Source of the DNA: a virus
Taxonomy: Duplodnaviria > Heunggongvirae > Uroviricota > Caudoviricetes
Reading direction: 5' to 3' (one strand)
Virus record (IMG/VR): IMGVR_UViG_3300050026_000241
Length of the DNA: 64,000 bases
A program made the position numbers and the translations under genes. The notes under the pieces were generated by a model. It searched no databases and was not told the origin of the DNA. It saw only the letters and a program-made list of their open reading frames with translations. Of this stretch, positions 1 through 64,000 are shown piece after piece (position 1 is the first letter of the stretch; every line of letters begins with the position of its first letter).

Positions 1-39
1 TCGCTCTATGGGAAGCGTGAGATAACTCTTTCCAACGGT

Positions 40-739: not shown

Positions 740-740
740 C

Positions 741-1025: not shown

Positions 1026-1028
1026 GTC

Positions 1029-1280: not shown

Positions 1281-1370
1281 TGGAGAATGTCGCAACGGTG
1301 CCGGCAACGGTGCCGGCACCGTTGCGTGCGGCATCCGAAACGCCTTTAATCCTTCAACACGAGAGAAACC

Positions 1371-2494: not shown

Positions 2495-2495
2495 C

Positions 2496-3965: not shown

Positions 3966-3968
3966 GGA

Positions 3969-4382
3969 ATGATTGTGAGCAAGAAAAGAACACTCCGACG
4001 CCGGCTGCAAAATGCCTGCCGCTGGTTTCACGACTGCTGGTATTGGATCAAGTGCCGCCTACTTTGTCGTTACAATGTAGTGGTGTGCAGGCCGCTGCCG
4101 CCGACCTGGGTTGACCGTGATTACCTTTTGCTGTTTGCGTCCTTCCAGATTTTGGAAGACTTTGTGGACCGGGAGGAAGGTCACTTTTACGAGAACGTCT
4201 ACCCGCTCTACCTTGACTGCGGCAAGGAACGTGCCCGCGAGGAAGAGCGGGATTGGGACGCAATTCGCAACCTTTACGTTTGGTGGCAGAGTCGTAAGGC
4301 CGACAAGTACGCCGACGATTACGATGAAGACAGCGACATGCTTCACCGACTTATTGACCTGCGGAAATACCTCTGGACCTGA
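3969..4382 (+). CDS. hypothetical protein
   Basis: 137-aa ORF, Trp/Cys-rich N-terminus, acidic C-terminus; operon-coupled. Confidence 0.4.
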   Translation: MIVSKKRTLRRRLQNACRWFHDCWYWIKCRLLCRYNVVVCRPLPPTWVDRDYLLLFASFQILEDFVDREEGHFYENVYPLYLDCGKERAREEERDWDAIRNLYVWWQSRKADKYADDYDEDSDMLHRLIDLRKYLWT

Positions 4383-4391
4383 AAGAAAACA

Positions 4392-5393: not shown

Positions 5394-5410
5394 CTAACCC
5401 GAGAGCAACA

Positions 5411-5674
5411 ATGACCCCTTCACGAACCCTACCGCTGAATGACTCGAACTACAAGGTTCATGCCGACAACATCGCGCGAATCATCGCGGGTGCCGCCAAC
5501 ATCAATGACGCCGATATTAAGGTCGTCTATTACATGGCCCTAGTCACCTACACGGAGCCGGCGAAGTCGGAGCCGGCGAAGTCGGTAACTGTGCCGACGC
5601 ACGCCGAGAAGGCGGCCGCTGCGATTAACCCCGTCGCTCTTGACACGATCTTGGCGGGAGGGGGTGTCAGTTGA
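5411..5674 (+). CDS. hypothetical protein
   Basis: ATG inside track ORF 5369..5674; repeat EPAKSEPAKS. Confidence 0.4.
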   Translation: MTPSRTLPLNDSNYKVHADNIARIIAGAANINDADIKVVYYMALVTYTEPAKSEPAKSVTVPTHAEKAAAAINPVALDTILAGGGVS

Positions 5675-5682
5675 GCAAGTCC

Positions 5683-5901
5683 ATGAAAATCTCCCAGACG
5701 ATCCTTGATCGACTGAAAGATTCAAGGCTATCCCCGGAGCACTTTATCCAGGGCTTCGGGGCCTTGCTGGCAGCTACAAATCACACCGGGCTACTCGGTT
5801 TAGCTATTACCATCGACTATGCCGATGTGGACGAAACGGTTGGACCAGACGAACTAATACCCATCATCACTCTTTCATTTCGAGCAAGCAGTAATCAGTG
5901 A
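5683..5901 (+). CDS. hypothetical protein
   Basis: first ATG in track ORF 5671..5901. Confidence 0.3.
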   Translation: MKISQTILDRLKDSRLSPEHFIQGFGALLAATNHTGLLGLAITIDYADVDETVGPDELIPIITLSFRASSNQ

Positions 5902-6146
5902 CACCCTACGAATTAGTCACCGCCTCAGTGAGTGATTTCCACCGGGACTATCCCCGGCGTGCGGTACGGTCATTGGGTTGGTGCGAGGATGAAGTCACCG
6001 ATTTGCAGGCGGTGCGGGCCAAAAGAAAGACTGTCTGCCACTTGTCTTTTTACAACGGCGGCGGCTCGCTTATACTGATGGGCGGCCTTGACTTTATGAT
6101 GGAAGTTATTCGCACGGAGGATTACTGTTACACTTTACTCATGTGA
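5898..6146 (+). CDS. hypothetical protein
   Basis: GTG start overlapping upstream stop. Confidence 0.3.
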   Translation: MTPYELVTASVSDFHRDYPRRAVRSLGWCEDEVTDLQAVRAKRKTVCHLSFYNGGGSLILMGGLDFMMEVIRTEDYCYTLLM

Positions 6147-6154
6147 GGAATCTT

Positions 6155-6370
6155 ATGACTGCGGAATTGGGCATCGACGGAAACGCCGCCTACGCCCTTC
6201 TTGGTCCGAACCTCCACGAAGGCGAGGCCGAGTTTGTGCAGGTTGAACAAGGTGACGAGCTACTGTCTTCGGCCGAAATGCGCGCCGCCAAGCAGGCTCT
6301 CGCCAAGTTGCGAGCCCGCCTGGGGCAGCCTGAACTTTCCTACTACTTGGGGCCGGGATTGTCAGTATGA
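6155..6370 (+). CDS. hypothetical protein
   Basis: ATG inside track ORF 6143..6370. Confidence 0.4.
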   Translation: MTAELGIDGNAAYALLGPNLHEGEAEFVQVEQGDELLSSAEMRAAKQALAKLRARLGQPELSYYLGPGLSV

Positions 6371-6407
6371 TACACTGTCACAAGATTCGCTTGTTTTGGA
6401 GATTACA

Positions 6408-6584
6408 ATGGTTAGATTGATTGAGGGCGACTGCCTGGAAGAAATGAAGTCGATCCGAGACGGATCAATCGACATGATTCTCTGCGACCTGCCCTACGGA
6501 ACGACTTATTGCAAGTGGGATGTGCGGCTACCTTTCGAGCCGCTGTGGGCTCAGTACGAGCGTATCATCGTGATTGCATTCTGA
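6408..6584 (+). pseudogene. DNA amino-methyltransferase N-terminal fragment (truncated after 58 aa)
   Basis: MVRLIEGDCLEEMKSIRDGSIDMILCDLPYGTTY carries a (D/S)PPY-type motif IV then stops; full-length related methyltransferase at 7749..8516. Confidence 0.45.
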
Positions 6585-6623
6585 TTGAGAATGAACCGCA
6601 ATACTGTGCAATGGTGAGGGAAC

Positions 6624-6776
6624 GATGTTCGATACCAGGGTAGACGAACCTGAATGGCAACACGGCTTTGCCGTCTGTCCGCAATGCAATCACACATGGG
6701 TCTGTTCGGTGCAAGTTGGCGAGGCCCCGGAGTGTCCGGTGTGCCACGAGAAGGGCGAATTGAGAGGGTCATCGTG
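6624..6776 (+). CDS. small zinc-ribbon protein
   Basis: 50-aa ORF with CPQC...CPVC pairs; not in ORF track (<60 aa); coordinates approximate. Confidence 0.35.
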
Positions 6777-7019
6777 AAAGCACTTGTACTGCTTGCGGCG
6801 CTTGTTTGTGGTTTTGTCTACGACTACATCTGGGCGAAGTGCGTCGATGCTGTCCAACATAGGCGGGCTATCTACGCCGCCAACCTTGGCATCATCCTTT
6901 ACATTTGCACACTCATGGCAACTGTTATGGTGGTGGAGAAGTGCTTGTGGGCTGTAATCCTGTACGGCATCGGCAACTGGCTTGGCGTTTACCTGGCAGT
7001 GAAAGGGAAGAAACAATGA
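6774..7019 (+). CDS. small membrane protein (two TM helices)
   Basis: GTG start overlapping upstream stop; LVLLAALVCGFVY and ILYGIGNWLGVYLAV. Confidence 0.4.
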   Translation: MKALVLLAALVCGFVYDYIWAKCVDAVQHRRAIYAANLGIILYICTLMATVMVVEKCLWAVILYGIGNWLGVYLAVKGKKQ

Positions 7020-7333
7020 GCGGCTTACTCCTAATCGACCTGAATCCGAAGTGGTGGCACTTTGACGAAGGTGGCCCGCGTGTCGGGCTCACATTCCTTT
7101 GTCCCTGTTGCGTCGGCACCGAGCGTGAGACGCACCTGGGCATCGCATTTCACCACAAGGGCCACGAAGCCATCGAGGACCAATACATCCGGGCTCATGG
7201 GCACGGCAAGGAAGAACACATCTGGGAACTTGCGAGCGAGGAAGACTTTCATAGTCTGACTTTAACACCGTCCATTGACGCCAGCAAGAGTGGCCATTGG
7301 CACGGTTGGATTCAAAACGGAGAGATACGATGA
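7016..7333 (+). CDS. His/Cys-rich hypothetical protein
   Basis: ATG at 7016 inside track ORF; CPCC and multiple His. Confidence 0.45.
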   Translation: MSGLLLIDLNPKWWHFDEGGPRVGLTFLCPCCVGTERETHLGIAFHHKGHEAIEDQYIRAHGHGKEEHIWELASEEDFHSLTLTPSIDASKSGHWHGWIQNGEIR

Positions 7334-7749
7334 ACAGCATAGGGAATCGACCCTTTCGCGCGGCCATAGATTTTGACGGCACCGTAGTCACAAGCAGCCC
7401 TTGCGACAAGACCCTCATTGGTTCGCCAGTGCCCTTTGCCCTTTACTGGCTGCAAAAATGGCAAGATGCCAGAGCCGAATTGTATCTCTGGACCATGCGT
7501 GGCAGGCAGGGCACCGATGGAGATAGACTCTCCCCTGCTGTTCGTTACTTGCTCGACAACGGTATCAGACTGGCCGGTGTGAACCGTGGTGAGCGGCCGT
7601 GGACCGACAGCCCGAAGCTCTACGCCAATGTCTATGTTGACAATGCGGCGGCCGGAGCACCGCTGATCTATCCCGCAAACGGATTACCGTCGTACCTAGA
7701 CTGGACTGTTGTTGGTCCACTCGTTTACAATATGATTAGGGAGTGGTAA
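7330..7749 (+). CDS. HAD-like hydrolase family protein
   Basis: AIDFDGTVV = HAD motif I (DxDGT). Confidence 0.5.
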   Translation: MNSIGNRPFRAAIDFDGTVVTSSPCDKTLIGSPVPFALYWLQKWQDARAELYLWTMRGRQGTDGDRLSPAVRYLLDNGIRLAGVNRGERPWTDSPKLYANVYVDNAAAGAPLIYPANGLPSYLDWTVVGPLVYNMIREW

Positions 7750-8516
7750 TGGTGAAGTATCAACTGCTGAACATGGATTGCCTTGAGTGGCTGCCGAGCA
7801 TCGAGACCGAGATCGACACGCTTTTCGCGGACCCGCCCGATAATTTGAATCTGGCCTACGACAGCTACAAAGACAAGCTGACCAAGGACCAGTACGTCGG
7901 CATGTTGCAACAGTGGCTCTGCATGTTCGTCGCCAAAGCCCGGACGGTCTGGTTCTCGTACAACGCTAAGTGGTCGTTCGAGGTAGGCCGAATTGTCTGT
8001 GCCCTCCAAGAGTCCTACGGCAAGGGCATCGAATGCAAACCGTGCGTCCAAACCTTTACCTTCGGGCAACACTGCCACTTTGATCTTGGCAACAACCATC
8101 GGCCGTTGCTCCGCATTCAGAAGGCGGGCGCGCCGCTGTACCCGGACGCCATCCGTGTGCCGTCGTGGCGGCAAGAGCACGGCGACAAGCGGGCTGACCC
8201 TCGTGGCAGAGTCCCAGGTGATGTTTTTGATGTTCCTCGCGTGACAGGCAACAGTAAGCAACGCAGAAGTTGGCATCCAACTCAGTTGGGTGAGACGCTG
8301 GTCGAACGCTGCGTAAAGTTCACCACCCCTCCGGGTGGAATGGTTGTCGATCCATTCGCCGGCACCGGCACGACGCTCAGAGTGTGTAAACGTCTTGGCT
8401 TCAACTGTGTCACGACCGAGATCGACAAGACGTATTGTGAGAACATTGCCAAGGAAAACGATCTTGCCCGGTCGGAATACTGCCACCGAGCCGTGTGGGG
8501 GAGCGAGGTAATATGA
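7749..8516 (+). CDS. DNA N6-adenine/N4-cytosine methyltransferase (beta-class)
   Basis: motif IV FADPPDN precedes motif I VVDPFAGTGTT. Confidence 0.8.
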   Translation: MVKYQLLNMDCLEWLPSIETEIDTLFADPPDNLNLAYDSYKDKLTKDQYVGMLQQWLCMFVAKARTVWFSYNAKWSFEVGRIVCALQESYGKGIECKPCVQTFTFGQHCHFDLGNNHRPLLRIQKAGAPLYPDAIRVPSWRQEHGDKRADPRGRVPGDVFDVPRVTGNSKQRRSWHPTQLGETLVERCVKFTTPPGGMVVDPFAGTGTTLRVCKRLGFNCVTTEIDKTYCENIAKENDLARSEYCHRAVWGSEVI

Positions 8517-9262
8517 GATACTTACTCATCTTACTGATCTTTCTTGTCGGCTGCGAGGCCCCGGCCGAGACGCCCGCCCCGCTGCCGGTCGTGGTCGTAG
8601 AGCCTGCCTGGACGCACTACGCCCCTGTCCGAACGGTGCGAGACAGGGGACCAGTGTTGGACGACATTGACTCACATCTGCCCGCTGGCAACGTCTACAC
8701 ACGCGAATCTGACCCCGTTACGGCGTGCCACGAGGGTACTCACGGTGTCAACAGCGACTTGCGGCAAGCCTATCACAAGGCAGGGTTCTATGTCCTGAAC
8801 GACCGGGCCGTCTTGATCGACAACCCGGTCATTACGCTAACGGCCGTGGCCCGTGAGGTTCCGGCCAGCCTACGGGGTTTCAACTATCGGCTGTATTTCG
8901 TCCAACAACTTGCCGACTGGAATGAGCATCCGACATACCCCTTTGACGAGTGGTGTGCTTACACTAACGGAGCGGAAGCCCGGCTGCGGCGGAACATCCC
9001 CGACAGAGACGACACGGTTCAATTCGCCTTAGAATTCGTACCATATAGTATCTGTGTCGCCAAGGCGGCACATGACGCCGGGCTGCCGGATGACCCTCAA
9101 ATGAAAGCGTTCATTCAGTGGCAGGCCGAGCGGTGCATTCGGCTGGGAGGCGAAATTAAGCAACCTCTGCCGAACATGACGGCGGCCGATGCCGCCAGCT
9201 TCCGCGACTTTTGCCACCTTTACTTTGGTGCCCCTTGGACCCTCAAGAATCTAGGTTTCTAA
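8513..9262 (+). CDS. lipoprotein
   Basis: MRYLLILLIFLVGC signal peptide with lipobox. Confidence 0.55.
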   Translation: MRYLLILLIFLVGCEAPAETPAPLPVVVVEPAWTHYAPVRTVRDRGPVLDDIDSHLPAGNVYTRESDPVTACHEGTHGVNSDLRQAYHKAGFYVLNDRAVLIDNPVITLTAVAREVPASLRGFNYRLYFVQQLADWNEHPTYPFDEWCAYTNGAEARLRRNIPDRDDTVQFALEFVPYSICVAKAAHDAGLPDDPQMKAFIQWQAERCIRLGGEIKQPLPNMTAADAASFRDFCHLYFGAPWTLKNLGF

Positions 9263-9522
9263 TGCGATTTCAAACTTGTCCGAACGTCATTGTCGAAGAG
9301 AATCGAATCTGCCTGACACGTATCCGCTGGGAAAACGGCGTCGTCGGCAAGGGCGGCTATTCCGCCAAGTTGAGCCTGTCCCTGTGCTTTGATTGGAGAA
9401 GCCTGTGGGTAGGCTTATTCATCAAGCGGCGGCACCACGGCTTCTATGCTTGGCTTTGCCTACTGCCCTGCCTGCCCCTCCGTATCTCGTTTCAGCGGTC
9501 CTATGGCGGCATCTTCCCCTGA
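9262..9522 (+). CDS. hypothetical protein
   Basis: ATG overlapping upstream TAA. Confidence 0.4.
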   Translation: MRFQTCPNVIVEENRICLTRIRWENGVVGKGGYSAKLSLSLCFDWRSLWVGLFIKRRHHGFYAWLCLLPCLPLRISFQRSYGGIFP

Positions 9523-9530
9523 AAGACACA

Positions 9531-9854
9531 ATGGGCACAATGATTTGCACACGTTGCAACGGCACCGGCTTTCTCAACCTTGAGCAAGTCGATAAAAAGA
9601 CCCTAGCACGGTTTGAAGAAACCGGCGACCCCGGCATAATACTGGCCTGGATCGACGACCGAGACATAAAGGCGGCAGAGTGCGGCGGCTGTTACTGCGC
9701 TGCAACAAGAAGGCCGCCGTGTTCCTACTGTACTGACTTTGCCCACGACGTAAGCCCCTGCGATTGCTGCGGTAACGGAGAGCCCTGGGGCTGGTACTTT
9801 CTCCCTGGCTTACATAATTGGGACGACCCAAACGACCCGAAAGGATGCAGATAA
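9531..9854 (+). CDS. Cys-rich hypothetical protein
   Basis: CTRCNGTG, CGGCYC, CSYC, CDCCGNG clusters. Confidence 0.45.
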   Translation: MGTMICTRCNGTGFLNLEQVDKKTLARFEETGDPGIILAWIDDRDIKAAECGGCYCAATRRPPCSYCTDFAHDVSPCDCCGNGEPWGWYFLPGLHNWDDPNDPKGCR

Positions 9855-10045
9855 TGCTTCTTGATGAAGTCCTGTTAAACGACCGGCAAGTCCGGCCACG
9901 ACAAAAGTTCGACGGCTACGCCCACAACGAGACTGAGGCTGCCGTCGCCGCCCGTCTCGCTGTCTTGGAGGCCCGAGACCCTTCACAGAAGAGGCCGACG
10001 CCGAAGCGGAACGCCAACGCCAACGTCGATTGGATTGACCTATGA
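9845..10045 (+). CDS. hypothetical protein
   Basis: ATG inside track ORF 9818..10045. Confidence 0.35.
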   Translation: MQIMLLDEVLLNDRQVRPRQKFDGYAHNETEAAVAARLAVLEARDPSQKRPTPKRNANANVDWIDL

Positions 10046-10212
10046 GGTTACATGTGGAGAACCATTTGAAATACGTCACCAACTACAAAGCGGCCCTGGA
10101 TGAAGTGCTAGGAAGGCTGTCGCTTCCTTACGCCGATCTGGTGTCGGCTGCTGAACCGTCGTCTGTTTCACTTACCCCGTTCGAGTCCTTAGAAATTGGA
10201 GAGTTCGCATGA
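10042..10212 (+). CDS. hypothetical protein
   Basis: 56-aa ORF with ATGA overlaps at both ends; not in track; approximate. Confidence 0.25.
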   Translation: MRLHVENHLKYVTNYKAALDEVLGRLSLPYADLVSAAEPSSVSLTPFESLEIGEFA

Positions 10213-10433
10213 GTCAAGACTTTATTGGACGAGCCATCGCGGCCGGAAACACCATTGTCTATCCTGTCCGTCGTGGCAGCAAAATGTGGCTGAACAAGTT
10301 GGCCGTCACGCAAGTCGATGACGACCATATCACCGGGTTCAACAGCGACGGCCGCCGTATCACGGTGAAAAATCTCAAGAATTGCGTCGTGGTTGAACCG
10401 CTGCCCGTCGTGGACGGCGCTGCCGGCCTGTAA
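10209..10433 (+). CDS. hypothetical protein
   Basis: 74-aa ORF. Confidence 0.4.
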   Translation: MSQDFIGRAIAAGNTIVYPVRRGSKMWLNKLAVTQVDDDHITGFNSDGRRITVKNLKNCVVVEPLPVVDGAAGL

Positions 10434-10449
10434 ACACGGAGGTTTCATC

Positions 10450-10647
10450 TTGCCGAATTATGACTATCGCTGCGTGGGCTGCGGCCACGAGTGGGAAGTC
10501 TTTCACGCCATTGCCGACGAGGGGCCGAAGAAGTGCCCCAAGTGCAAGACGAAGAAGAGGCCCCGCAAAATGATTACGAGCCCGCCCGCATATCACAACC
10601 ATTATAGCCCGATGCACCCGCGAAAGAATCGCGGCCGGGGCTATTGA
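10450..10647 (+). CDS. FmdB-family zinc-ribbon protein
   Basis: YDYRCVGCGHEWEV...CPKC; TTG start. Confidence 0.5.
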   Translation: MPNYDYRCVGCGHEWEVFHAIADEGPKKCPKCKTKKRPRKMITSPPAYHNHYSPMHPRKNRGRGY

Positions 10648-10692
10648 TCGTAACGATTATACCTGCCGGAGCAATGCTCCGGCAGGCACAGC

Positions 10693-10720
10693 TTGACTTC
10701 TGGCCAAACTATGGTATATA
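10693..10720 (+). promoter_or_regulatory. sigma70-like promoter cassette
   Basis: TTGACT-N16-TGgTATATA; ATG 10728 ~7 nt after -10 (leaderless). Confidence 0.55.
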
Positions 10721-10727
10721 TTAAGAT

Positions 10728-11648
10728 ATGGAATTCATTCGCACGAAGAAGCGCGGTCAAAGTGCAAAAACATATCGCACTTGGCTCGCTGACGACGACT
10801 ACAGGATTGTATGGCGTAAGGAAGCGTTCGGCGTCGAAATGACGCCGGCCTACATGGCGTGTGTTAAGGTCATGGTTCCTAACGTCGGACAGGATTGGTA
10901 CACAACGCCCGAACTAGAGCGCGGCAAGCCGAAGTCCGCCGTCATGTGGGACTTCGTTGACCCGGCCCGCCACCTGCAAAAGAAGCTGAAAACCGCGCAA
11001 GAGACGTGCGAAAAGCACAAACGGCTCTGGACTAAAGCCTGTGACACCACGGGCATTCGCGGCATCATTGAACTTTTCGGTAAGGTGCCGTCTGCCGTGC
11101 CGCTGTGGGTGAAGAGCAAGCTACCCAAGAAAGTACTTGAAGTTCTCACCCGGCCGCCACACCTTTTTTACGAGGATGAAGAGGAATGTCAAGCACCTAC
11201 GCTGCCGGATGGCCCCGAAACAAGCCAGTCCGACCCTATCGCAATCTCTCCGACTTTGTTTCAAAATACCAATACCTCTCCAAGCGAGAGTGGCCCTGTC
11301 TCGCCTGCCGAGGCCGAGGATGGGACTACGACCCGGAAGACCCGGAAGACCCGGAAGACCCACCGTGCCCGGTCAAAGGGAACCGAGGTCGAAACACCAT
11401 CCCCTGCGCCGCCTGCGGAGGCACCGGCGAAGGCACCGGCGAAGGGAGCCGGCCAGCACCTGCTGGATTCTACTGCGCCGCCTGCGGAGGCACCGGCGAA
11501 GGGACGAAAGCCGCGTGTGTCAAAGCCTACCGGGAAGCCATCCAAAGGTTCAAAGCGGAAGCCGACGACTACAAAAGGCTCGCGCAAGTCCGCAAAGAAC
11601 TCCGCGAAGGGCTCTCGAAAGAGCAAATCCGCGCCATCAAAGAACTAG
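10728..11648 (+). CDS. hypothetical protein with basic K/A/P-rich low-complexity tail
   Basis: first gene led by the cassette promoter (ATG at TSS); frame ambiguous after ~11186. Confidence 0.45.
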   Translation: MEFIRTKKRGQSAKTYRTWLADDDYRIVWRKEAFGVEMTPAYMACVKVMVPNVGQDWYTTPELERGKPKSAVMWDFVDPARHLQKKLKTAQETCEKHKRLWTKACDTTGIRGIIELFGKVPSAVPLWVKSKLPKKVLEVLTRPPHLFYEDEEECQAPTLPDGPETSQSDPIAISPTLFQNTNTSPSESGPVSPAEAEDGTTTRKTRKTRKTHRARSKGTEVETPSPAPPAEAPAKAPAKGAGQHLLDSTAPPAEAPAKGRKPRVSKPTGKPSKGSKRKPTTTKGSRKSAKNSAKGSRKSKSAPSKN

Positions 11649-11656
11649 GAATTTAA
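11186..11656 (+). CDS. alternative overlapping ORF, Cys-rich (CxxCxGxG x3)
   Basis: GAGGA 5 nt upstream of ATG; CLACRGRGW, CAACGGTGEG twice; non-low-complexity C-terminus. Confidence 0.3.
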   Translation: MSSTYAAGWPRNKPVRPYRNLSDFVSKYQYLSKREWPCLACRGRGWDYDPEDPEDPEDPPCPVKGNRGRNTIPCAACGGTGEGTGEGSRPAPAGFYCAACGGTGEGTKAACVKAYREAIQRFKAEADDYKRLAQVRKELREGLSKEQIRAIKELGI

Positions 11657-11731
11657 CGTGAACGCCGAGTCGCTTATCCAGCGGCTTACAATCAGAACAA
11701 CCGATACAGAGTGAATTCCGAAAGATTCTAT

Positions 11732-11759
11732 TTGACTTCTCCGAATCAGATGGTATACT
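11732..11759 (+). promoter_or_regulatory. sigma70-like promoter cassette
   Basis: TTGACT-N16-TGgTATACT; ~65-nt leader to ATG 11824. Confidence 0.55.
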
Positions 11760-11823
11760 TGAATAGTCTTTGAGATAGTGCCATTACGGTATTAGTCCTG
11801 AGACAACACCTTTGGAGAGTACT

Positions 11824-12315
11824 ATGAAAACCGCCGACTATGAATCCTTAGCAGAGGCCGAGTTCTACATCTATGCCTACTTTGACGAGAAGGATGTGCC
11901 AATCTACATCAAAGCTGGCCGTGGCGACCAGGCTCATTCGCACATTCAAGGATGTCAGGCGGTATTCCGTGACAACAATTCGCCGGCTTTCTACCGGAAA
12001 CTCCGCGACATGCTTTATAAGAATTTGAAGCCGACTGTCCGCATCATTGCCGAGAATCTGACACAAGTTGAAGCGTTTGAAGTGTGGGAAGATTTCTTCA
12101 TCCAAGCCATCGGCCAACAAAGACTGGGCACCGGCCCGCTGCTGAACGAACACTTGAACGGCGACGGGGATGCTCAGGAACTTCACCCGCGCGTGGCACG
12201 GCCGCAACAACTCGCACACGCGCGCCCACATCGTACCCCGGCACGTTCCACCGTTCGACAGCAGCTTGAAATCGAATGGCAGACCGATTTGCAGACCGAA
12301 TTGCTGGCAACGTAA
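11824..12315 (+). CDS. GIY-YIG-like domain protein
   Basis: FYIYAYFDEKDVPIYIKAGRG resembles GIY...YIG; cassette promoter ~90 nt upstream; Arg-rich tail possibly over-extended. Confidence 0.4.
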   Translation: MKTADYESLAEAEFYIYAYFDEKDVPIYIKAGRGDQAHSHIQGCQAVFRDNNSPAFYRKLRDMLYKNLKPTVRIIAENLTQVEAFEVWEDFFIQAIGQQRLGTGPLLNEHLNGDGDAQELHPRVARPQQLAHARPHRTPARSTVRQQLEIEWQTDLQTELLAT

Positions 12316-12422
12316 TCATCCGGCAGTCCAAACGCGCCAAGGTTGGCGATGCTGCCGGGTGGCGAGCGCCTTCTTGCGAGACTCGTCACCACCCGGCAGC
12401 AATTCGACTGTGACCACACACA

Positions 12423-12617
12423 ATGCAAAAGACAGACCGTTTGAACCAACTGATCGCGGACATTCGCCGCGAGGCCCCGCACGTCGGCAAGAAGCCGTAC
12501 AGCCACAACATTATCCGAACCGCTTTGAGTATCATCGCCGACGAGTTTGGCGTCGAGGAAGCCAATAAGGTCGTCCGAAAACTCAGGCTGCATCGGAGAG
12601 GATTCAACGAAGAGTAA
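12423..12617 (+). CDS. hypothetical protein
   Basis: 64-aa ORF. Confidence 0.4.
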   Translation: MQKTDRLNQLIADIRREAPHVGKKPYSHNIIRTALSIIADEFGVEEANKVVRKLRLHRRGFNEE

Positions 12618-12621
12618 TTCA

Positions 12622-12924
12622 ATGACGAGTAAAGCCAAGGCAACAAAACTGTCGGACCCGACGCCGTTCAGAACAGTGGCGGACGAGCGAATCTCAAAAC
12701 GCACAAGCGAAAAGCAAACCCTACAAACCCTGCGTGAACAAGTACAAGCGGGTAAAAGTGACGCCAAGGTGAAGGCAGTGCTCGCCCAGATCAAGAGCAA
12801 GTTTGGGGACGCCGCCTTCGAGAAAGAACTTCGCGCCTACGCCGTGACCAAGGCCGGCGTCAAAGGTGCGCAAGACGTGAGGCTACCGCCCGGCGTCAGC
12901 CCGAATGTGGGAAGGAACAAGTAA
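12622..12924 (+). CDS. basic small protein, PARAKKLD/KFGD family copy 1
   Basis: array of 5 tandem paralogs; shared N-terminal K..ARAKKLD-like and QIxxKFGD[AE][EA][YF] motifs. Confidence 0.5.
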   Translation: MTSKAKATKLSDPTPFRTVADERISKRTSEKQTLQTLREQVQAGKSDAKVKAVLAQIKSKFGDAAFEKELRAYAVTKAGVKGAQDVRLPPGVSPNVGRNK

Positions 12925-13211
12925 TGGGCAAGGCACGCGCAACACGACTCAACCGGCAAGTGCCCTTGAAGCTGGCGACAGACAGCCAAGCAAAGAAGGC
13001 CGCCGAACAGGCGACAAACAAGGCCCGAATGAAGGCGATGGGCAAGCCGGCAACCAAGGAAGAAAAGCTGAAACTGGCTGTCGCCCAGATTCATGCCCGA
13101 GACTCGGAAGCCTTCAAGCAGCACGCCGAGACCAGGAACGACATGCCGGCTCGCGGCATCGACAAAGTTGGTTTCATACCCAACGACCCCTCAATGGCAA
13201 AGGTAAAGTAA
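12924..13211 (+). CDS. basic small protein, family copy 2 (divergent)
   Basis: MGKARATRLN..., LAVAQIHARDSEAFK. Confidence 0.45.
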   Translation: MGKARATRLNRQVPLKLATDSQAKKAAEQATNKARMKAMGKPATKEEKLKLAVAQIHARDSEAFKQHAETRNDMPARGIDKVGFIPNDPSMAKVK

Positions 13212-13498
13212 TGGGGAAGAAACCAACACCGGCGAGAGCCAAGAAGCTCGATACGAGCGTACCGATGCGGGGCAGAAGCGTCGGTATCGAACCGCCAAAG
13301 ACTGGCCGCCCGCTGCCAGCAACACCCAAGGCAGGGCCGGCGAAAGCCACTAGCAAGGATGCCGCGCTGCAAAAGATTCGTCAGAAGTACGGCGAAGACG
13401 AGTACCACAGGGCGCTGGACGAATACCAGAAAACCTTCCGTGGTGAGCAGCGAACCAACAGCGAGATTCGCAACAAGGATAACAGCCATGCGAAGTAA
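13211..13498 (+). CDS. basic small protein, family copy 3
   Basis: KKPTPARAKKLD; QKIRQKYGEDEY. Confidence 0.5.
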   Translation: MGKKPTPARAKKLDTSVPMRGRSVGIEPPKTGRPLPATPKAGPAKATSKDAALQKIRQKYGEDEYHRALDEYQKTFRGEQRTNSEIRNKDNSHAK

Positions 13499-13823
13499 AC
13501 CGCAACCAGCGCGAGCCAAGAAGCTCGATATGACACGACCGCTGCATACTGTGCCGGCCCAAGCCGACAGGTCTGTGCCCAAGGCAGACAAGCGGACAGT
13601 CCGCAACAAGACCGAACTCGCTGCCTTGCGTGAGCAAGTGAAGCAGGCGGCGGCCACAGAGGGCGGCCGTCAGAGTCAAGCCGCCAAGCTGGCTCTGGGC
13701 CAGATCGAGGCCAAGTTCGGTGACGCCGAGTACCGCAAAGCCATGCGTGAGAACAACTTGACGTACAAAGGGCATCAAGACATGCCCATCAACGTCCTGC
13801 CTGGAAAGGGGCCGGTCCAATGA
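13488..13823 (+). CDS. basic small protein, family copy 4
   Basis: KPQPARAKKLD; LAALREQV; QIEAKFGDAEY. Confidence 0.5.
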   Translation: MRSKPQPARAKKLDMTRPLHTVPAQADRSVPKADKRTVRNKTELAALREQVKQAAATEGGRQSQAAKLALGQIEAKFGDAEYRKAMRENNLTYKGHQDMPINVLPGKGPVQ

Positions 13824-14203
13824 GCAAGCCGTCGAGCAAGAAGCCACAACCCGCCAGAGCCAAGAGACTCGACAGAGAAATGCCGCTGCGGGCTACGCGA
13901 ATGGGCGTCGGCCAGCAAGAGTCGCGGCCGACTATTACCAAAGAGGTAAAGCCACCGGCCCAACTCACGGCGTTGCGTGAGAAAATCCGGGCTGAAAACA
14001 GCGGTAAGAATGACAACGCCCGTGCCCGAACAGCGAACGTCCAAAGCACCTTGGAGCAGATTCGAGTCAAGTTCGGTGACGAGGAATACCGCGCGGCCGT
14101 GCAGGATTTCAAGACAGACTTCCGCGAGTTTGACAAGATCAACTTGCTCAGAAATAAGGGGCCTGGGGTGCAACCCAAAGACCACTTGCAAACCCCTCCC
14201 TGA
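13820..14203 (+). CDS. basic small protein, family copy 5
   Basis: KKPQPARAKRLD; LTALREKI; QIRVKFGDEEY. Confidence 0.5.
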   Translation: MSKPSSKKPQPARAKRLDREMPLRATRMGVGQQESRPTITKEVKPPAQLTALREKIRAENSGKNDNARARTANVQSTLEQIRVKFGDEEYRAAVQDFKTDFREFDKINLLRNKGPGVQPKDHLQTPP

Positions 14204-14626: not shown

Positions 14627-15242
14627 AATTATCACAGTCGAGCAATTCAAGGTGTTGCTGGACTACGACATTGCCGAGAAAATAGCCAATGACCGGCTAG
14701 CCCGCTTAGAGACGCTCAACAACAGAGTCAGCATGTTGGCCGTGTTATACACGGAGCTGTGCCGCAGGCTGTATGTCGAGTGTGAGGATGCCAGGGAGAT
14801 TGTCGAAGCGACAGAGAACCCGCAGGCAACAGCCTACGTTGAGTACGTGTCCCATTACGACGCTTCCAATGTGGTCTACGATCTGATGCAGGAAGCAACG
14901 AAAGAAGCCAATACGGAAGCAAGCTATCTCGCCTGGTTCAAAACAATGACGTTTGACCCCGCATACAAGGCGGCGATAGAATTGATTAAAGGTAAGAGGG
15001 ACGAAGGGACGAAGGGTGAAACAGTGCAAGATATAACGCTAAACGAAGATATAACGGACGCAGCCGAAGATATAACGGACGCAGCCGAAGAAGCCTTAAT
15101 TGAGGAAGTTAAAGGTCTTGACGCCGATGACTTGCTCGATGCTTGCGAGCATGTCCTTGGATTAAATCATCCAGCGACAAAGGCACTGCGTTTTGAAGTT
15201 GAGCGCATCAATGGTGAACATGAAACACCGGGGAGTCTCTAA
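14616..15242 (+). CDS. hypothetical protein, paralog pair member 2
   Basis: TENPQATAYVEYVSHYDASNVVYDLMQEATKE; internal repeat EDITDAAEx2. Confidence 0.5.
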   Translation: MLIEIITVEQFKVLLDYDIAEKIANDRLARLETLNNRVSMLAVLYTELCRRLYVECEDAREIVEATENPQATAYVEYVSHYDASNVVYDLMQEATKEANTEASYLAWFKTMTFDPAYKAAIELIKGKRDEGTKGETVQDITLNEDITDAAEDITDAAEEALIEEVKGLDADDLLDACEHVLGLNHPATKALRFEVERINGEHETPGSL

Positions 15243-16087
15243 TGTGGTTGAATCTATCAACAACCTTTCCCTCTGCTCCGGTGGTGGCGGGCTCGACATC
15301 GGACTTGAACTCGCTCTCGGAGCGGTTCGCACGGTCTGTTGGGTGGAGTGGGAAGCCTTTGCCATCGAGTACATTGCGAAAGCGATGGAAAACGGCGGCT
15401 TGGATAAAGCACCTATTTGGACTGACGTGCGCACTTTCGACGGACGACCCTGGTGTGGCGTCGTGGATAGCATCACTGCGGGCTACCCGTGTCAACCGTT
15501 CAGCTATGCGGGTGACAGACATGGACAGGATGATCCTCGTCACCTGTGGCCACACGTCGCTCGAATCGTTGGCGAAATTAAACCCACACTCGTCTTTCTC
15601 GAAAACGTGTCAGGACACCTTACCCTTGGGTACGATCAAGTCGCTGCCGATCTTGACAAACTGGATTACACAGTTGCGACAGGACTCTTCACAACGTCAG
15701 AAGTTGGCGGAAGCCAAAAACGAGAGCGGCTTTTCACTGTGGCCTGCGCCGGCCGCGACCATGACAACAGGCGAAGACAAGGATGCGAGCTGGGTTCCCG
15801 GTCAGAAGCCGACACGGTGGGGGAAAGTAGTACAAACAGCGTTGACCACCTGTGCCAAGATTTGGATGCGGGACTACCTCTCTTCCCTCCGCGACCGGAC
15901 GACTATGAAACCTGGACCGCCCTGCTCAAAGACACCCAAAACCAAAGGCTCGCCCCTGCGCTTGAACCCGACCTTCACTGGCTGGCTGATGGGATGGCCG
16001 AACTTCGGTTGCACGGCAACGGAGTGGTCCCGCTACAAGCAGCGTATGCGTTCTGCTCTCTGTGGTCTGTTTTGCGAAACGAAGTAG
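15220..16087 (+). pseudogene. DNA (cytosine-5)-methyltransferase split across two reading frames
   Basis: frame of 15220: motif I LSLCSGGGGLD, motif IV GYPCQPFSYAG, motif VI ENV, motif VIII QKRERLF; frame of 15242 downstream: TRD LWPAPAATMTTGEDKD and motif IX-like RLNPTFTGWLMGWPNFG; switch at T4 run ~15731-15734. Confidence 0.55.
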
Positions 16088-23447: not shown

Positions 23448-24194
23448 ATGAATGACAGCATTGGCGACCGATTCAAGAACAATTATGAGGCCCCCGCGCG
23501 TCACCTACTGACCCGCAGGACGCCCGTAATCGTGCGCATTGACGGTCGTGCCTTCCACACCTTCACCCGCGACTTCCTCAAGCCGTTCGACCGTGAGTTA
23601 ATCAACATGATGGTGTTGTCGGCCATGCACGTCTTTGGCGAAATGCAGGGCTGCAAGATAGCTTACGTCCAGTCGGACGAGGCCAGCTTCGTGTTGACCG
23701 ACTACGACACTTTCGACACGCAGCCTTGGTTCGGCTACGTCAAAAGCAAGGTGGAAAGTGTCGCGGCGTCCTGCATGACGGCTGCGTTCGCACGTTGCCA
23801 GCATCTTGCGGGTGGGCGGTACGCCGACTCACTGGCGACATTTGACGCCCGTGCCTTCAACATCCCCAGGAATGAGGTAGTAAACTACTTCGTGTGGCGG
23901 GCGAAGGACTGGGCGCGCAACAGCTTGTCGATGTACTGCCAGTCGATCTTCTCTCACCGCGAGTTGCAGGGCAGGAACTCCAAGGCCATGCACGAAATGC
24001 TGTTTGCGAAAGGCCGTAACTGGACACGCGACCTTTGCAACGCCGAGAAGAATGGGACGTTCTTGATTGCCCCGAAAGAGGCCGTGGCCGCGAATTCCGA
24101 CATCGAACCAAGATACGGCGACATTGATGCCGTATGGGAAGCCGTTCGACCAAAAGAGGCCGTCACTACCGCAATCGAAATCGTAAGCGAATAA
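23448..24194 (+). CDS. Thg1-like protein (tRNA-His guanylyltransferase family, 3'-5' nucleotidyltransferase)
   Basis: N-terminal VIVRIDGRAFHTFT matches Thg1/TLP signature. Confidence 0.65.
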   Translation: MNDSIGDRFKNNYEAPARHLLTRRTPVIVRIDGRAFHTFTRDFLKPFDRELINMMVLSAMHVFGEMQGCKIAYVQSDEASFVLTDYDTFDTQPWFGYVKSKVESVAASCMTAAFARCQHLAGGRYADSLATFDARAFNIPRNEVVNYFVWRAKDWARNSLSMYCQSIFSHRELQGRNSKAMHEMLFAKGRNWTRDLCNAEKNGTFLIAPKEAVAANSDIEPRYGDIDAVWEAVRPKEAVTTAIEIVSE

Positions 24195-24196
24195 CT

Positions 24197-24625
24197 ATGC
24201 CACCGCCCTCCAACATCTGCCCACCACCGCCGCCTGGGACCATACAGCAAGCGGTGGCAGGGCCGCCGCCGAAGCCGCTGCCGCTAGATACGTCTGTGCC
24301 GCCCCCGGCTGCCCCGTCAGATTCGGGGCTATCGCCGGAGTTGGCAGCAGCCCTGGCTGCGGCGTCAGAAGCGGCAGAAGTGTTGGCACCGCCACCACGG
24401 CCGCCTGTGTTGCCTCCGGCCATGCCTGTGCCGGCCACGACCGACATTGAGCCGCCGCCCGTCACGCTTGACGAAATAGTATTCGACTGGGTTGCGGTCA
24501 ACCGTAAACCGGAAGATGTTTTCAGCCGTGAGGCCCTTGTCGCCTGGGCACATGGTAGCGGCTTTTGCACCAAGGAAGAAGTAGTCAAGGCGATTGTGGA
24601 AAACCTTATACCAAAGAAGCTATGA
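24197..24625 (+). CDS. Pro-rich hypothetical protein
   Basis: PEDVFSREALVAWAHGSGF module shared with 24622 gene. Confidence 0.45.
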   Translation: MPPPSNICPPPPPGTIQQAVAGPPPKPLPLDTSVPPPAAPSDSGLSPELAAALAAASEAAEVLAPPPRPPVLPPAMPVPATTDIEPPPVTLDEIVFDWVAVNRKPEDVFSREALVAWAHGSGFCTKEEVVKAIVENLIPKKL

Positions 24626-26387: not shown

Positions 26388-27779
26388 TCAAATGACCAAG
26401 CCAATACCTAGAACAACCCCGCAATCGGCTTTTGCCACTATCCAGGGCGACTTGTCGCCATATTGGAATGACAAGTGCCGCGCGTTGCAATCGCGCCTCT
26501 GGTGCCCAACCGAGAATGATTGCAAAGTGTTGTTCGATTCTTCGGAGTTCATTGAGCGTGTTGCCTCACCGTCTGCCGGAGATTTGTGCCCGTCGTTTGT
26601 ACTTCCCGCTCTATCTGGCGAGCGACCCAAGGAAAAGGAAGTTAGCCGTAAGATAAGGCTCTATCCGAAGAACTTGGAGAAGTGGGAGGAATGTTTGTGG
26701 GCGGCTCGTCGGGCCTACAACCTCGCTATTGAGGCTTTCAAGGAATGGAAGAAGGATGTGCCGAGCGAGGCAGATAACCAATCCGCCTTTCGCCGCTCAA
26801 TCCGTGAAAAGGTAGCGGCTGAATTTCCCGGTGTGCCGCGCGTAATGCTTGACGAAGCGGTCAACAGCGCTTACCTCACACGGCAAGCCATCATTAAGAA
26901 AAGATCGCAAGGTGAGCAATGCGACTTTTCCTTCCGTTGCCGGAAGGACACGAAGCAATCGTTTGTAGTTGAGAGGCTTGCGAACGGTGGGCCGTTTCCA
27001 ACCTTTCTGAAATGCCATCTTACCGAGGCGATTCCGAGCGAATCTGCCGGGAAAATGGCGGTTGTTGTGCGAGAGCATGGTAGATGGTTTCTGACGTGTA
27101 AGGTCAAGGTGCCGGTTGCTGCCGAGAGCCAAGGTAGGAAAACCGTCGCTTGCGACCCCGGCGTAAGAACTTTTCTCGCTACCTACTCTCTTAGTGATTG
27201 TGCGTTTATCGGCCACGGCTTTGCCGCCAAGATACGACCAATGCTCTTGCAGCTTGATAAGTTGCTTGGGCGGCGGAAGTGCTTGAGCAACATCAAGGAA
27301 TGGAAGCAATGTCACCGGGATAGGAACCGTAACTTGCAAAAGCGAATCGACTCGATCTTTTGCAAGGTGCAAGACTTGATGGACGATCTGCACCGGCGTG
27401 CGGCCGATTTTCTCACAAAGAACTTCGACGTGATTTTGCTTCCGACATTTGAGACTTCCGAAATGGTTTCCAAGAGCGCACGCAAAATTGGTAGCCGCTC
27501 CGTCCGGTCGATGCTATCCCTTGGTCACTATCGCTTCAAGCAATTCCTGATTTGGTCGGCCTACAAGCGTGGCAAGATCATAGTGGATTGCAGCGAAGCG
27601 TGGACCACATGCACCGACTCCCGAAGCGGTGTGATTATTGATGTTGGTTCAAGGGAATGGATCAACGGACTTCACAGGGATGTAAACGGCTCGCGGGGTA
27701 TTTTCCTCCGAGCGATGGCGGCTTGAGCCCGAAACATCCCCAGCAAACGCTACAAAATGTTGCGTTTGTTGCGTTTCAA
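26364..27779 (+). mobile_element. TnpB-only transposon-like unit bounded by inverted repeats
   Basis: left TTGAACGCAACAAACGCAACAT (~26364-26385) vs right ATGTTGCGTTTGTTGCGTTTCAA (~27757-27779), 22/23 match; tnpB fills the interval. Confidence 0.5.
26392..27726 (+). CDS. tnpB: TnpB-like RuvC-fold nuclease (IS200/IS605 OrfB family)
   Basis: RKIRLYPKNLEKWEECLWAARRAYN; RuvC-I KTVACDPGVRTF; RuvC-II LLPTFETSEM; RuvC-III HRDVNGSRGI; zinc finger degenerate. Confidence 0.75.
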   Translation: MTKPIPRTTPQSAFATIQGDLSPYWNDKCRALQSRLWCPTENDCKVLFDSSEFIERVASPSAGDLCPSFVLPALSGERPKEKEVSRKIRLYPKNLEKWEECLWAARRAYNLAIEAFKEWKKDVPSEADNQSAFRRSIREKVAAEFPGVPRVMLDEAVNSAYLTRQAIIKKRSQGEQCDFSFRCRKDTKQSFVVERLANGGPFPTFLKCHLTEAIPSESAGKMAVVVREHGRWFLTCKVKVPVAAESQGRKTVACDPGVRTFLATYSLSDCAFIGHGFAAKIRPMLLQLDKLLGRRKCLSNIKEWKQCHRDRNRNLQKRIDSIFCKVQDLMDDLHRRAADFLTKNFDVILLPTFETSEMVSKSARKIGSRSVRSMLSLGHYRFKQFLIWSAYKRGKIIVDCSEAWTTCTDSRSGVIIDVGSREWINGLHRDVNGSRGIFLRAMAA

Positions 27780-29185: not shown

Positions 29186-29481
29186 AGTTCTTCGGCTGGA
29201 ATCCCGAATGGCTTGAAGGTCGAATTGTCAACCGCCGACTGACGGATGCCTATGACATTTCGATCTGCCGACCCTCAAAATGGGGTAATCCATTCGAGGT
29301 TGAAGTATACGGCCGAGAGCGGGCTATCGCCCTTTTTGCGATACATCTACGACGCCGCCCCGATCTTATCGCATCTTTGCCCGAGCTATCGGGCAAAATT
29401 CTAGGCTGCTGTTGTTATCCGCTACACTGCCACGGTGCTATTTTGCTCCAATTTCTATGGGAATACCACGGCTTGCTATGA
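29182..29481 (+). CDS. DUF4326-family protein
   Basis: RPSKWGNPF and GKILGCCCYPLHCHGAIL. Confidence 0.5.
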   Translation: MKFFGWNPEWLEGRIVNRRLTDAYDISICRPSKWGNPFEVEVYGRERAIALFAIHLRRRPDLIASLPELSGKILGCCCYPLHCHGAILLQFLWEYHGLL

Positions 29482-30515
29482 ATCTTAAATCAATCGGCTT
29501 CTACACGCTCAGCGACGAGCGCTGTCTTAACGTCAGTGCGTTGTCGCCTATGCAGCGGTGCGAAATGATCCTGACGGACAAATGCAACTTCAAGTGTCCG
29601 TACTGCCGGGGCCTGCGCAACGATTGCAAGGGCGACTTGCCGATTGAAGACGCGATGGCGACCCTCAAGCTGTGGTGCGACGACGGCTTGAAGAACGTGC
29701 GGTTCTCTGGCGGCGAACCCCTCACATACCCGCATCTGGACGCCTTGGTGAAGTACGCCAAGTTCCGTGGTGTCGAACACATAGCGATCTCTTCCAACGG
29801 CTCGTTCCCGTTCGGCCGCTACTACGAATTGATTACCGAGGGCGTCAACGACTTCTCAATCAGCCTGGACGCTTGCTGTAGTTCATACGGCGACAAGATG
29901 GCGGGCGTCAGCGGGCAGTTTGAACGGGTGACGTACAACATCGTCGAGTTGTCAAAGCTAGTTTACACGACGGTCGGCGTGGTACTCACAGCCGAGACCG
30001 TTTCCACGACTCGCAGAGTCGTGGAGTTTGCACACGGCCTGGGCGTGACCGACATACGAATCATCCCGTGCGCCCAAGAGGGGAACGGCAACGCTGAACT
30101 TGTTCGACAGGTTGGACTAATTTCGCAAAAAATCTTGGACGCCCACCCTATATTAAAATATCGGGTACAGAACATCCTTAATGGTGTGCTAATTCGCGGC
30201 TTACAAGCGTCCGATACGCACACCTGTTACCTGGCCCTGGACGACAGCGTAGTCAGCGGCGGGTATCACTATCCCTGTGTTATTTACCTGCGTGAGAAGG
30301 GCGAGCCAATCGGCAAAGTCGGCCCGAACATGAGAGGCCAGCGAGTAGCGTGGATGGCCCAGCACGACACCCACAAAGACCCGATCTGCTCTAAGCAATG
30401 TCTCGATGTCTGCTGCGCGCATAATAATCGTTGCGCCTTTTATCAAGAGAGGAAGCACTGGTTTGTCACGCAGACTGCATCTACCGATGCCGAAAATGTC
30501 AGCACGCGACATTGA
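29478..30515 (+). CDS. radical SAM protein with C-terminal Cys-rich region
   Basis: CNFKCPYC (CxxxCxxC); RFSGGEPL; C-terminal CSKQCLDVCCAHNNRC. Confidence 0.7.
   Translation: MNLKSIGFYTLSDERCLNVSALSPMQRCEMILTDKCNFKCPYCRGLRNDCKGDLPIEDAMATLKLWCDDGLKNVRFSGGEPLTYPHLDALVKYAKFRGVEHIAISSNGSFPFGRYYELITEGVNDFSISLDACCSSYGDKMAGVSGQFERVTYNIVELSKLVYTTVGVVLTAETVSTTRRVVEFAHGLGVTDIRIIPCAQEGNGNAELVRQVGLISQKILDAHPILKYRVQNILNGVLIRGLQASDTHTCYLALDDSVVSGGYHYPCVIYLREKGEPIGKVGPNMRGQRVAWMAQHDTHKDPICSKQCLDVCCAHNNRCAFYQERKHWFVTQTASTDAENVSTRH

Positions 30516-63825: not shown

Positions 63826-64000
<175 letters not shown>

Follow-up and report, generated by a model that had tools for sequence, protein, structure and literature searches.

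A bacterial-type Thg1-like protein gene in an uncultured genome, probably that of a huge phage, and its probable role in rebuilding truncated tRNA 5' ends

What would a phage gain from a Thg1-like 3'-5' nucleotidyltransferase? The question is raised by a gene at positions 23448-24194 of a 64,000-nucleotide stretch of DNA from the IMG/VR virus record IMGVR_UViG_3300050026_000241 (the whole stretch is called the window in what follows). A sequence-only reading of this DNA had recognised an enzyme of this kind, taken it to be phage-encoded and suggested that it serves the repair or maturation of tRNA 5' ends. Here we report that the gene encodes a Thg1-like protein (TLP) of the bacterial type, and we argue that this protein probably carries out template-dependent 3'-5' rebuilding of 5'-truncated tRNA acceptor stems in the service of a large, probably huge, phage.

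The open reading frame (ORF) is confirmed as real. It runs on the plus strand from an ATG at 23448 to a stop codon at 24192-24194, and residues 24-43 of its product correspond to the peptide RTPVIVRIDGRAFHTFTRDF, which the sequence-only reading had cited. The longest ORF in the same frame opens further upstream, at a TTG at position 23208, but the ATG is the right start, because it is chosen by independent gene calls on eight metagenome contigs from several samples, all encoding the identical 248-residue product, and because the equivalent Met is the start in homologues, including the TLP of Bacillus thuringiensis sv. israelensis (BtTLP, MDSIGDRMK...). Antisense ORFs across the gene are each shorter than 100 amino acids and without support. 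With a GC content of 56.6%, close to the 55.6% of the window, the gene gives no impression of having been acquired recently from a foreign source. No Shine-Dalgarno sequence is recognisable 5' of it; such sequences were found for 13 of 30 genes checked, so weak usage is general in this genome. A scan for promoters and terminators around the gene returned fewer sites than shuffled sequence did, and no transcription unit can therefore be defined. The gene and its parts are as follows.

23448..24194, plus strand: complete TLP coding sequence, 248 amino acids plus stop (Pfam, PHROG and PDB matches, independent gene calls)
23481..23867, plus strand: N-terminal catalytic palm domain, residues 12-140 (PF04446; AlphaFold model; fold matches 4KGM, 3WC1, 3OTB)
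23541..23543, plus strand: codon GAC for D32, first metal-binding carboxylate, equivalent to D30 of BtTLP and D29 of human THG1 (alignment; roles from PMC3701042)
23673..23681, plus strand: codons for S76-D77-E78, the SDE motif, equivalent to S74/D75/E76 of BtTLP and S75/D76/E77 of the human enzyme (invariant in 48/48 homologues)
23868..24089, plus strand: C-terminal helical half, residues 141-214, with R151 and the bacterial-type M162 (BtTLP alignment through residue 217; PHROG 4717; pLDDT 92-98)
24090..24191, plus strand: clade-specific C-terminal tail, residues 215-248, with conserved P221, I226 and W230 (near-invariant columns in homologue alignments)

The identification of the product as a bacterial-type Thg1-like 3'-5' nucleotidyltransferase with its catalytic Asp/Asp/Glu intact is supported by several lines of evidence. 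The Pfam profile PF04446 (Thg1) matches residues 12-140 with 96.2 bits, well above its cutoff of 29.2 (E=1.9e-27, profile positions 6-130 of 130), and PHROG 4717, "tRNA-His guanylyltransferase", matches residues 1-213 (E=1e-75). The top solved structure found by sequence is BtTLP (4kgk_A, E=3.2e-46, residues 3-217, 95/208 = 46% identity), the match to human THG1 being far weaker (E=6e-10); no NCBIfam model matches the protein. An AlphaFold model built with 45 sequences in the alignment (pLDDT 88.4, pTM 0.86) was compared with the PDB, and all 32 matches at E<=1e-3 proved to be Thg1 or TLP chains (E from 9e-21 to 3e-10), the next match lying at E=0.07. The best of them is BtTLP again, in the entry 4KGM (TM 0.80/0.87), with 4KGK also among the best. 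The C-terminal half aligns with BtTLP both by sequence (through residue 217) and in three dimensions, and the tail beyond it is modelled with a helix at residues 223-233 and low confidence for the final ten residues or so. The profile of the Thg1 C-terminal domain, PF14413, which had likewise been proposed as a check, gave no match in the window protein at E<=1. BtTLP itself reaches 20.3 bits with this profile, below its cutoff of 26.3, and five other phage or metagenome TLPs score nothing; since the BtTLP clade misses too, the failure is a property of the profile rather than of the window protein, and the check is uninformative.

At the level of single residues, Hyde et al. (2013; PMC3701042) assigned roles to E12, R16, R28, D30, H35, T38, K43, S74, D75, E76, K99, R131, R147 and M158 of BtTLP, and the numbering in our BtTLP alignment reproduces theirs exactly. 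All 14 have equivalents in the window protein (E14, R18, R30, D32, H37, T40, K45, S76, D77, E78, K101, R135, R151 and M162). Ten of these 14 positions are invariant among 48 aligned homologues, which are 41-83% identical to the protein. The catalytic carboxylates, whose presence the sequence-only reading had left to alignment, are conserved in 47/48 (D32), 48/48 (D77) and 48/48 (E78) sequences; M162 is found in 48/48 and T40 in 47/48, whereas K45 is K or R in 47/48 and R18 is R or K in 41/48. Neither a missing profile match nor missing carboxylates, the two outcomes that were to refute the sequence-only reading, occurred. The conservation of functional residues across these homologues indicates purifying selection, and on its sequence the TLP is apparently a catalytically competent, active enzyme.

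The comparison with characterised relatives narrows down its type. Eukaryotic Thg1 (human 3OTB, Candida albicans 3WBZ, yeast 5XOX) agrees with the window protein in fold (TM about 0.72-0.74), in the three carboxylates and in its 3'-5' addition chemistry, but the two share only 22-28% identity. Where the eukaryotic enzyme has an activation-step Asn, the window protein has Met162, and ARNSLS aligns with the human HINNLY motif. The eukaryotic enzyme acts on tRNA-His, to which it adds G-1 with recognition of the anticodon (reference cited in PMC8131947). Judged by M162 and the lack of a HINNLY-type motif, the window protein is to be placed with the bacterial repair-type enzymes, away from the eukaryotic tRNA-His enzyme. 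The archaeal TLP of Methanosarcina acetivorans (MaTLP, 5AXK-5AXN), too, has the same fold (TM 0.68-0.71), but its distance from the window protein (E=1e-7, 21-24% identity) puts it in another branch of the family; template-dependent 3'-5' addition to 5'-truncated tRNA is described for it (PMC4820378).

BtTLP is thus the closest characterised counterpart, with 14/14 functional residues in common, a length of 245 amino acids against 248, and M158 in the place of M162; it comes from a Bacillus element, whereas the window protein belongs to an uncultured genome of 56% GC, and its PF14413 signal is sub-threshold where the window protein shows none. Rao et al. (2011; PMC3061083) found that BtTLP prefers 5'-truncated tRNAs 5-160-fold and is not restricted to tRNA-His; a preference of this kind, with templated addition, is known for MaTLP as well. 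Residues 2-211 of BtTLP are identical to the product of a gene at positions 11998-12735 of L025, the 235,424-bp B. thuringiensis israelensis plasmid pAM65-52-3-235K. This plasmid, 3-235K, is the same as pBtic235, a plasmid-prophage that can be induced, forms plaques and has 17 tRNAs (PMC6199540, PMC9700832). The reference repair-type TLP is therefore already a gene of a jumbo prophage.

From the homology to BtTLP and MaTLP (PMC3061083, PMC3701042, PMC4820378, PMC8131947), the following course of reaction can be proposed. The starting RNA would have a 5' strand that falls short of its paired 3' strand, and the TLP would activate the 5'-monophosphate of this RNA, ATP or GTP yielding App- or Gpp-RNA. 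An incoming nucleoside triphosphate, picked by Watson-Crick pairing with the opposite strand, would then attack the activated 5' end through its 3'-OH. After removal of pyrophosphate the cycle would repeat, so that the acceptor stem is refilled from 3' to 5'. During infection this could restore tRNAs that had lost 5' nucleotides, or a phage transfer-messenger RNA (tmRNA) shortened likewise at its tRNA-like end, and keep translation running, the TLP acting alongside the RNA ligase, tmRNA and ribosomal protein bS21 of the same genome in the maintenance of translation and RNA. The phage T4 pair Pnkp and Rnl1 and the bacterial Pnkp/Hen1 system restore damaged tRNAs and so let translation go on; they are functional analogues alone, with no homology to the TLP (PMC7824862, PMC5852040): Pnkp systems heal and seal breaks in anticodon loops, whereas a TLP would refill missing 5' nucleotides of the acceptor stem. 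We infer the enzymatic activity, the substrate and any role in counter-defence from such comparisons. The suggestion of tRNA 5'-end repair or maturation is accordingly plausible and agrees with published predictions, at the level of inference. Within it we favour repair for this genome, because the 81.7 kb seen (the 64-kb window and 17.7 kb upstream) yielded no tRNA gene, the enzyme is of the BtTLP type and an RNA ligase is present.

The RNA-related genes just mentioned lie upstream of the window, on contigs (L014 and L022) that prolong it. L014 is 100% identical to window positions 1-12494.

L014 7242-7598, about 0.55-0.9 kb upstream of window position 1: full-length tmRNA (Rfam RF00023, 120.4 bits against a gathering threshold of 47, E=1.5e-46)
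L014 3193-3765 and 4017-5126, about 3-5 kb upstream of window position 1: P-loop AAA_28 kinase-like protein and Rnl5-like RNA ligase
L022 1-9000, about 8.8-17.7 kb upstream of window position 1: bS21 (56 amino acids), DNA polymerase A, DNA ligase, 5'-nucleotidase-like protein, metallophosphatase and ParB-like protein

The tmRNA carries the tag peptide ATNQMAMAA* (as read by ARAGORN) and its gene ends in ...CCACUU, the 3' CCA not being encoded. The RNA ligase has an N-terminal OB domain and matches PF09414 (7.5e-21), PF21189 (6e-11), PHROG 968 (5e-39) and the Naegleria gruberi ligase (2.5e-7). It is separated by one small gene from the kinase-like gene upstream, whose product matches a "thymidylate kinase" PHROG (1e-14). 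From their sequences, the two could possibly form a kinase-ligase pair for RNA repair, the kinase not being a proven polynucleotide kinase. RNA ligase and tmRNA are 24-27 kb upstream of the TLP gene, and bS21 is further upstream still. The tmRNA is the sole RNA found, and the window contains no Rfam family; the search for tRNA genes that the sequence-only reading had advised came out negative both in the window and in the 17.7 kb upstream (ARAGORN, Rfam and a permissive scan of 14-30 kb).

Homologues of the TLP in other phages provide a further view of its function. Of 50,697 phage records, 164 carry one, and most of these are annotated as tRNA-His guanylyltransferase or tRNA nucleotidyltransferase. 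Together with a dedicated PHROG family and the published proposals cited below, this contradicts the statement that such enzymes are rarely annotated in phages. Among the matches listed, all TLP-bearing phage genomes are at least 88 kb long and many exceed 300 kb; they include jumbo phages such as Bacillus phage G, the Lak phages, XacN1 and Brevundimonas, Erwinia and Yersinia jumbo phages. The window protein shares with the phage proteins of PHROG 4717 the profile match over residues 1-213, and large genomes are found in both cases. A search of 1.84 billion cluster representatives puts the size of the family as a whole at 5,159 (E<=1e-3). The closest members of the family from cultured phages, those of the actinophages Pound and Weasels2, are 51-52% identical to the window protein. 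The surroundings of the TLP gene in six cultured phages are these.

Mycobacterium phage Pound (gp114): polynucleotide kinase 0.6 kb downstream
Rhodococcus phage Weasels2 (gp231): tRNA-Met 0.55 kb upstream, 2'-5' RNA ligase 0.4 kb downstream, RtcB 9 kb upstream
Xanthomonas phage XacN1 (ORF126): RNA ligase 4.2 kb downstream
Shewanella phage 1/4: tRNAs 5 kb downstream
Bacillus phage Bc431v3 (gp143): no relevant neighbour
Bacillus phage G: no relevant neighbour

These neighbourhoods favour a role in RNA repair or in tRNA-related processes without separating repair from maturation. The same pair of possibilities was raised by Anantharaman, Iyer and Aravind (2010; PMC2904730), who noted Thg1 in phage 201phi2-1, proposed for it either tRNA-His maturation or RNA repair against host defences, and described the association of bacterial TLPs with genes for polynucleotide kinase, Macro-domain proteins and RNA ligase. 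Iyer et al. (2021; PMC7824862) count Thg1 among the RNA-repair enzymes of jumbo phages.

Several observations weigh against acceptor-stem repair as the function of the window protein. Neither beside the TLP gene nor among the 103 plus-strand ORFs of the window that we scanned against Pfam and PHROG is there a polynucleotide kinase, an RNA ligase, a CCA-adding enzyme or a Macro-domain gene, and Pnkp and Hen1 were likewise not found among the window ORFs. The ten ORFs neighbouring the TLP gene include no RNA-repair partner, the immediate neighbours being ORFans; the window thus differs both from the TLP-centred repair clusters of PMC2904730, in which a partner gene is adjacent, and from Pound, Weasels2 and XacN1, in which a polynucleotide kinase, an RNA ligase or a tRNA lies within 0.4-4 kb. 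The linkage between TLP and ligase holds at the level of the genome only, because the ligase gene is some 27 kb off and outside the window. Two of the six cultured phages sampled, Bc431v3 and Bacillus phage G, have no RNA-repair or tRNA neighbour either. The literature we searched yielded no biochemical data on phage-borne TLPs other than BtTLP and no experimental study of a TLP during phage infection. Nor did it yield a described anti-phage nuclease that trims tRNA 5' ends, the known ones cutting anticodon loops or 3' tails.

The alternative to be taken most seriously, although we regard it as rather unlikely, is that the TLP matures tRNA-like transcripts of the phage itself, by adding G-1 to tRNA-His, by editing mismatched or short tRNA 5' ends as in amoebozoan mitochondria or by processing the 5' end of the tmRNA. 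TLP-bearing phages are usually rich in tRNA genes (56 in XacN1, 20 in Bc431v3 according to PMC3601020, 17 in pBtic235), in Weasels2 and Shewanella phage 1/4 tRNA genes are found near the TLP gene as listed above, and in the papers that describe the Bc431v3 and XacN1 genomes the gene is interpreted as serving tRNA modification or maturation. The present genome encodes a tmRNA, and its relatives L008 and L009, with TLPs 65-66% identical, have a tRNA gene 5.7-9 kb upstream of theirs. However, the searches of the window and the 17.7 kb upstream found no tRNA gene, and the acceptor stem of the L009 tRNA is fully paired, leaving editing unneeded. BtTLP, moreover, strongly favours truncated tRNAs over -1 addition (PMC3061083), and the window protein combines the bacterial-type M162 with the lack of a eukaryotic HINNLY-type motif.

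The tRNA genes of these two relatives merit a description of their own. They are 72-nucleotide homologues at the same syntenic position (L009 4217-4288, L008 1018-1089), with different anticodons: UUU (Lys) in one and UCA in the other, the latter opal-suppressor-like and labelled "SeC" by ARAGORN. The nucleotide that precedes the anticodon, usually U, is C in both. No corresponding tRNA is present in the window.

As to the carrier of the gene, the replicon is probably a phage, a large and likely huge one, that has remained uncultured. The window has about 56% GC and about 100 short ORFs, almost all on the plus strand and mostly ORFans, among which our scan matched 34 PHROG families. Recognisable products include several DNA methyltransferases, HNH endonucleases, a DUF4417 nuclease, a radical SAM enzyme, an RNase T-type exonuclease and Band 7, FeoA-like, peptidase C39 and TnpB-like proteins. 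The 17.7 kb upstream add a metallophosphatase, a ParB-like protein, DNA polymerase A (832 amino acids), an ATP-dependent DNA ligase, bS21 and further methyltransferases to the P-loop kinase-like protein, Rnl5-like RNA ligase and full-length tmRNA described above. A 97-kb JGI contig from the samples 3300037094 and SRR35914902 encodes identical proteins. The genome is prolonged upstream by a Logan contig of 47 kb, which matches the window at 100% identity along stretches of 12.5 and 15.0 kb. Synteny around the TLP gene extends to contigs of 136 and 222 kb, and the TLPs encoded there are 65-66% identical to the window protein. A metagenome scan made to extend the contig brought up relatives of at most 90% identity only. 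Megablast of 12 kb around the TLP gene against the 50,697 phage records gave no match, a scan of IMG/VR with the TLP protein found no relative, and the 185,579 species-representative genomes of GTDB contain no close relative, just two distant matches in metagenome-assembled genomes (MAGs; 48% and 53% identity). DNA polymerase A finds only weak partial matches in phages, so that a close cultured relative is missing. The ParB-like protein is about 50% identical to the chromosomal ParB of Planctomycetota MAGs (Thermoguttaceae), a similarity that hints at a planctomycete host.

The claim that the gene is phage-encoded hence stands on gene organisation, PHROG families, the polymerase, bS21, tmRNA, RNA ligase and large relatives; virion genes did not appear, the 81.7 kb, part of a genome likely longer than 130 kb, having yielded none for capsid, terminase, portal or tail. 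This absence speaks for a large plasmid or other mobile element on which the TLP would be an ordinary bacterial or plasmid gene. Such an element would also accord with the planctomycete-like ParB and with the 30 plasmid records that carry TLP homologues; and while genes for tmRNA, bS21 and tRNA ligation are known from huge phages, similar translation-related sets occur on some large putative plasmids (PMC7162821). We nevertheless judge a plasmid origin unlikely. A run of about 100 short, mainly ORFan genes on nearly one strand throughout, with 34 PHROG families, speaks against it, as do the replicon's own DNA polymerase A, DNA ligase, bS21 and tmRNA, its several HNH endonucleases and many DNA methyltransferases, the syntenic relatives on 136- and 222-kb contigs and the failure to find a close relative among the species-representative genomes. 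TLP homologues turn up in 164/50,697 phage records and in 30/72,556 plasmid records, about eight times more often per record in the phages. Bacillus supplies 13 of the 30 plasmid matches, and the Bacillus records listed are 235-kb B. thuringiensis plasmids of the pBtic235 prophage type.

There is also a slim chance that the substrate is something other than tRNA, and that the TLP acts on the 5' ends of other structured RNAs or produces 5'-adenylylated or triphosphorylated ends that alter RNA stability. The chemistry would allow it, requiring just a recessed 5' end paired with a template strand and proceeding via App-RNA and ppp-N-RNA ends (PMC8131947), and the gene sits amid ORFans with no tRNA or repair gene adjacent. 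Against this, the characterised family members in PMC3061083, PMC3701042 and PMC8131947 all act on tRNA, the residues with which BtTLP handles nucleotides and tRNA are conserved, and the nearest phage homologues lie in tRNA or RNA-repair neighbourhoods. That the gene is an inactive remnant or a functionless passenger, as the lack of adjacent functional partners and of a recognisable Shine-Dalgarno sequence might be taken to mean, is hardly credible, given an intact, full-length frame with all catalytic and nucleotide-binding residues present and conserved down to 41% identity, the identical protein on eight contigs from several samples and the generally weak Shine-Dalgarno usage.

Repair of truncated acceptor stems thus being the function that we consider probable, one may go further and imagine the TLP as the 5'-end arm of a dispersed translation-rescue kit that counters an undescribed host nuclease trimming tRNA 5' ends. 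We regard this extension as quite improbable. It would suit a huge phage in which no tRNA genes of its own are seen and which has a tmRNA, bS21, an Rnl5-type ligase and a kinase-like P-loop protein, and the acceptor stems of host tRNAs, or the tRNA-like domain of the tmRNA, would be rebuilt after nuclease attack. If it were true, phage TLPs would mark a new class of tRNA-targeting immunity, and a long-sought natural source of the 5'-truncated tRNAs favoured by bacterial-type TLPs would have been found.

The gene described here is one further instance, from an uncultured and probably huge phage lineage, of a family already known in large phages, and it fits the view that large phages possess tool-kits for the maintenance of translation, comprising in this case TLP, RNA ligase, tmRNA and bS21. 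Beyond this locus, the broader question concerns the source of 5'-truncated tRNAs in infected cells and the possible action of phage TLPs as counter-defence enzymes. The in vivo substrate of phage TLPs is better approached in cultured phages, such as the cluster J mycobacteriophages, Bc431v3 and the pBtic235 prophage. It is possibly useful to the field that, with the textbook "bacterial" BtTLP encoded on pBtic235, the best-studied repair-type TLP is already a phage enzyme.

The immediate surroundings of the TLP gene show some peculiarities. A proline-rich segment lies just past its stop codon (window 24134-24625, plus strand, compared with L004 1089-1517), and the following gene is called differently on contigs with the identical TLP, with 67 amino acids in L001-L003 and 142 in L004. 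The genes next in order, of 85 and 171 amino acids, are conserved and adjoin the TLP gene in relatives as well. Neither has a match in Pfam, PHROG or the PDB, the Cys/His pattern of the 171-residue protein being HNH-like by eye, and we claim no functional link for them, because the overall synteny of the relatives explains their co-occurrence. Some 2.2 kb downstream of the TLP gene (window 26392-27726, plus strand) a TnpB-like protein of 444 amino acids is encoded, which matches the transposase family PHROG 506 (5.7e-23) and, below threshold, a Cas12f1-like TNB domain; it is apparently absent from the syntenic L009.

Genes for DNA methyltransferases are unusually dense, with N4/N6, D12, C5 and MT-A70 types at window 7743-8516, 15242-16087 and elsewhere, and at L014 396-1241, 1842-2444 and 5661-6506 upstream. 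Together with a fused FkbM-methyltransferase/glycosyltransferase (window 2424-3965) and the radical SAM protein (29412-30515), this density suggests, as far as gene content can tell, extensive DNA modification. Five tandem paralogues at window 12622-14203 (plus strand) encode small Lys/Ala-rich proteins of 95-127 amino acids with 23-38% pairwise identity; they have the motifs ARAKKLD and FGDxEY in common and cause the A-over-T skew of 0.37 in this segment, and no family match was seen for them. Finally, the end of the window (63825-64000) consists of CCGCCCCGCC-type repeats and, after them, 114 consecutive C, which looks like a sequencing or assembly artefact at the end of the contig.

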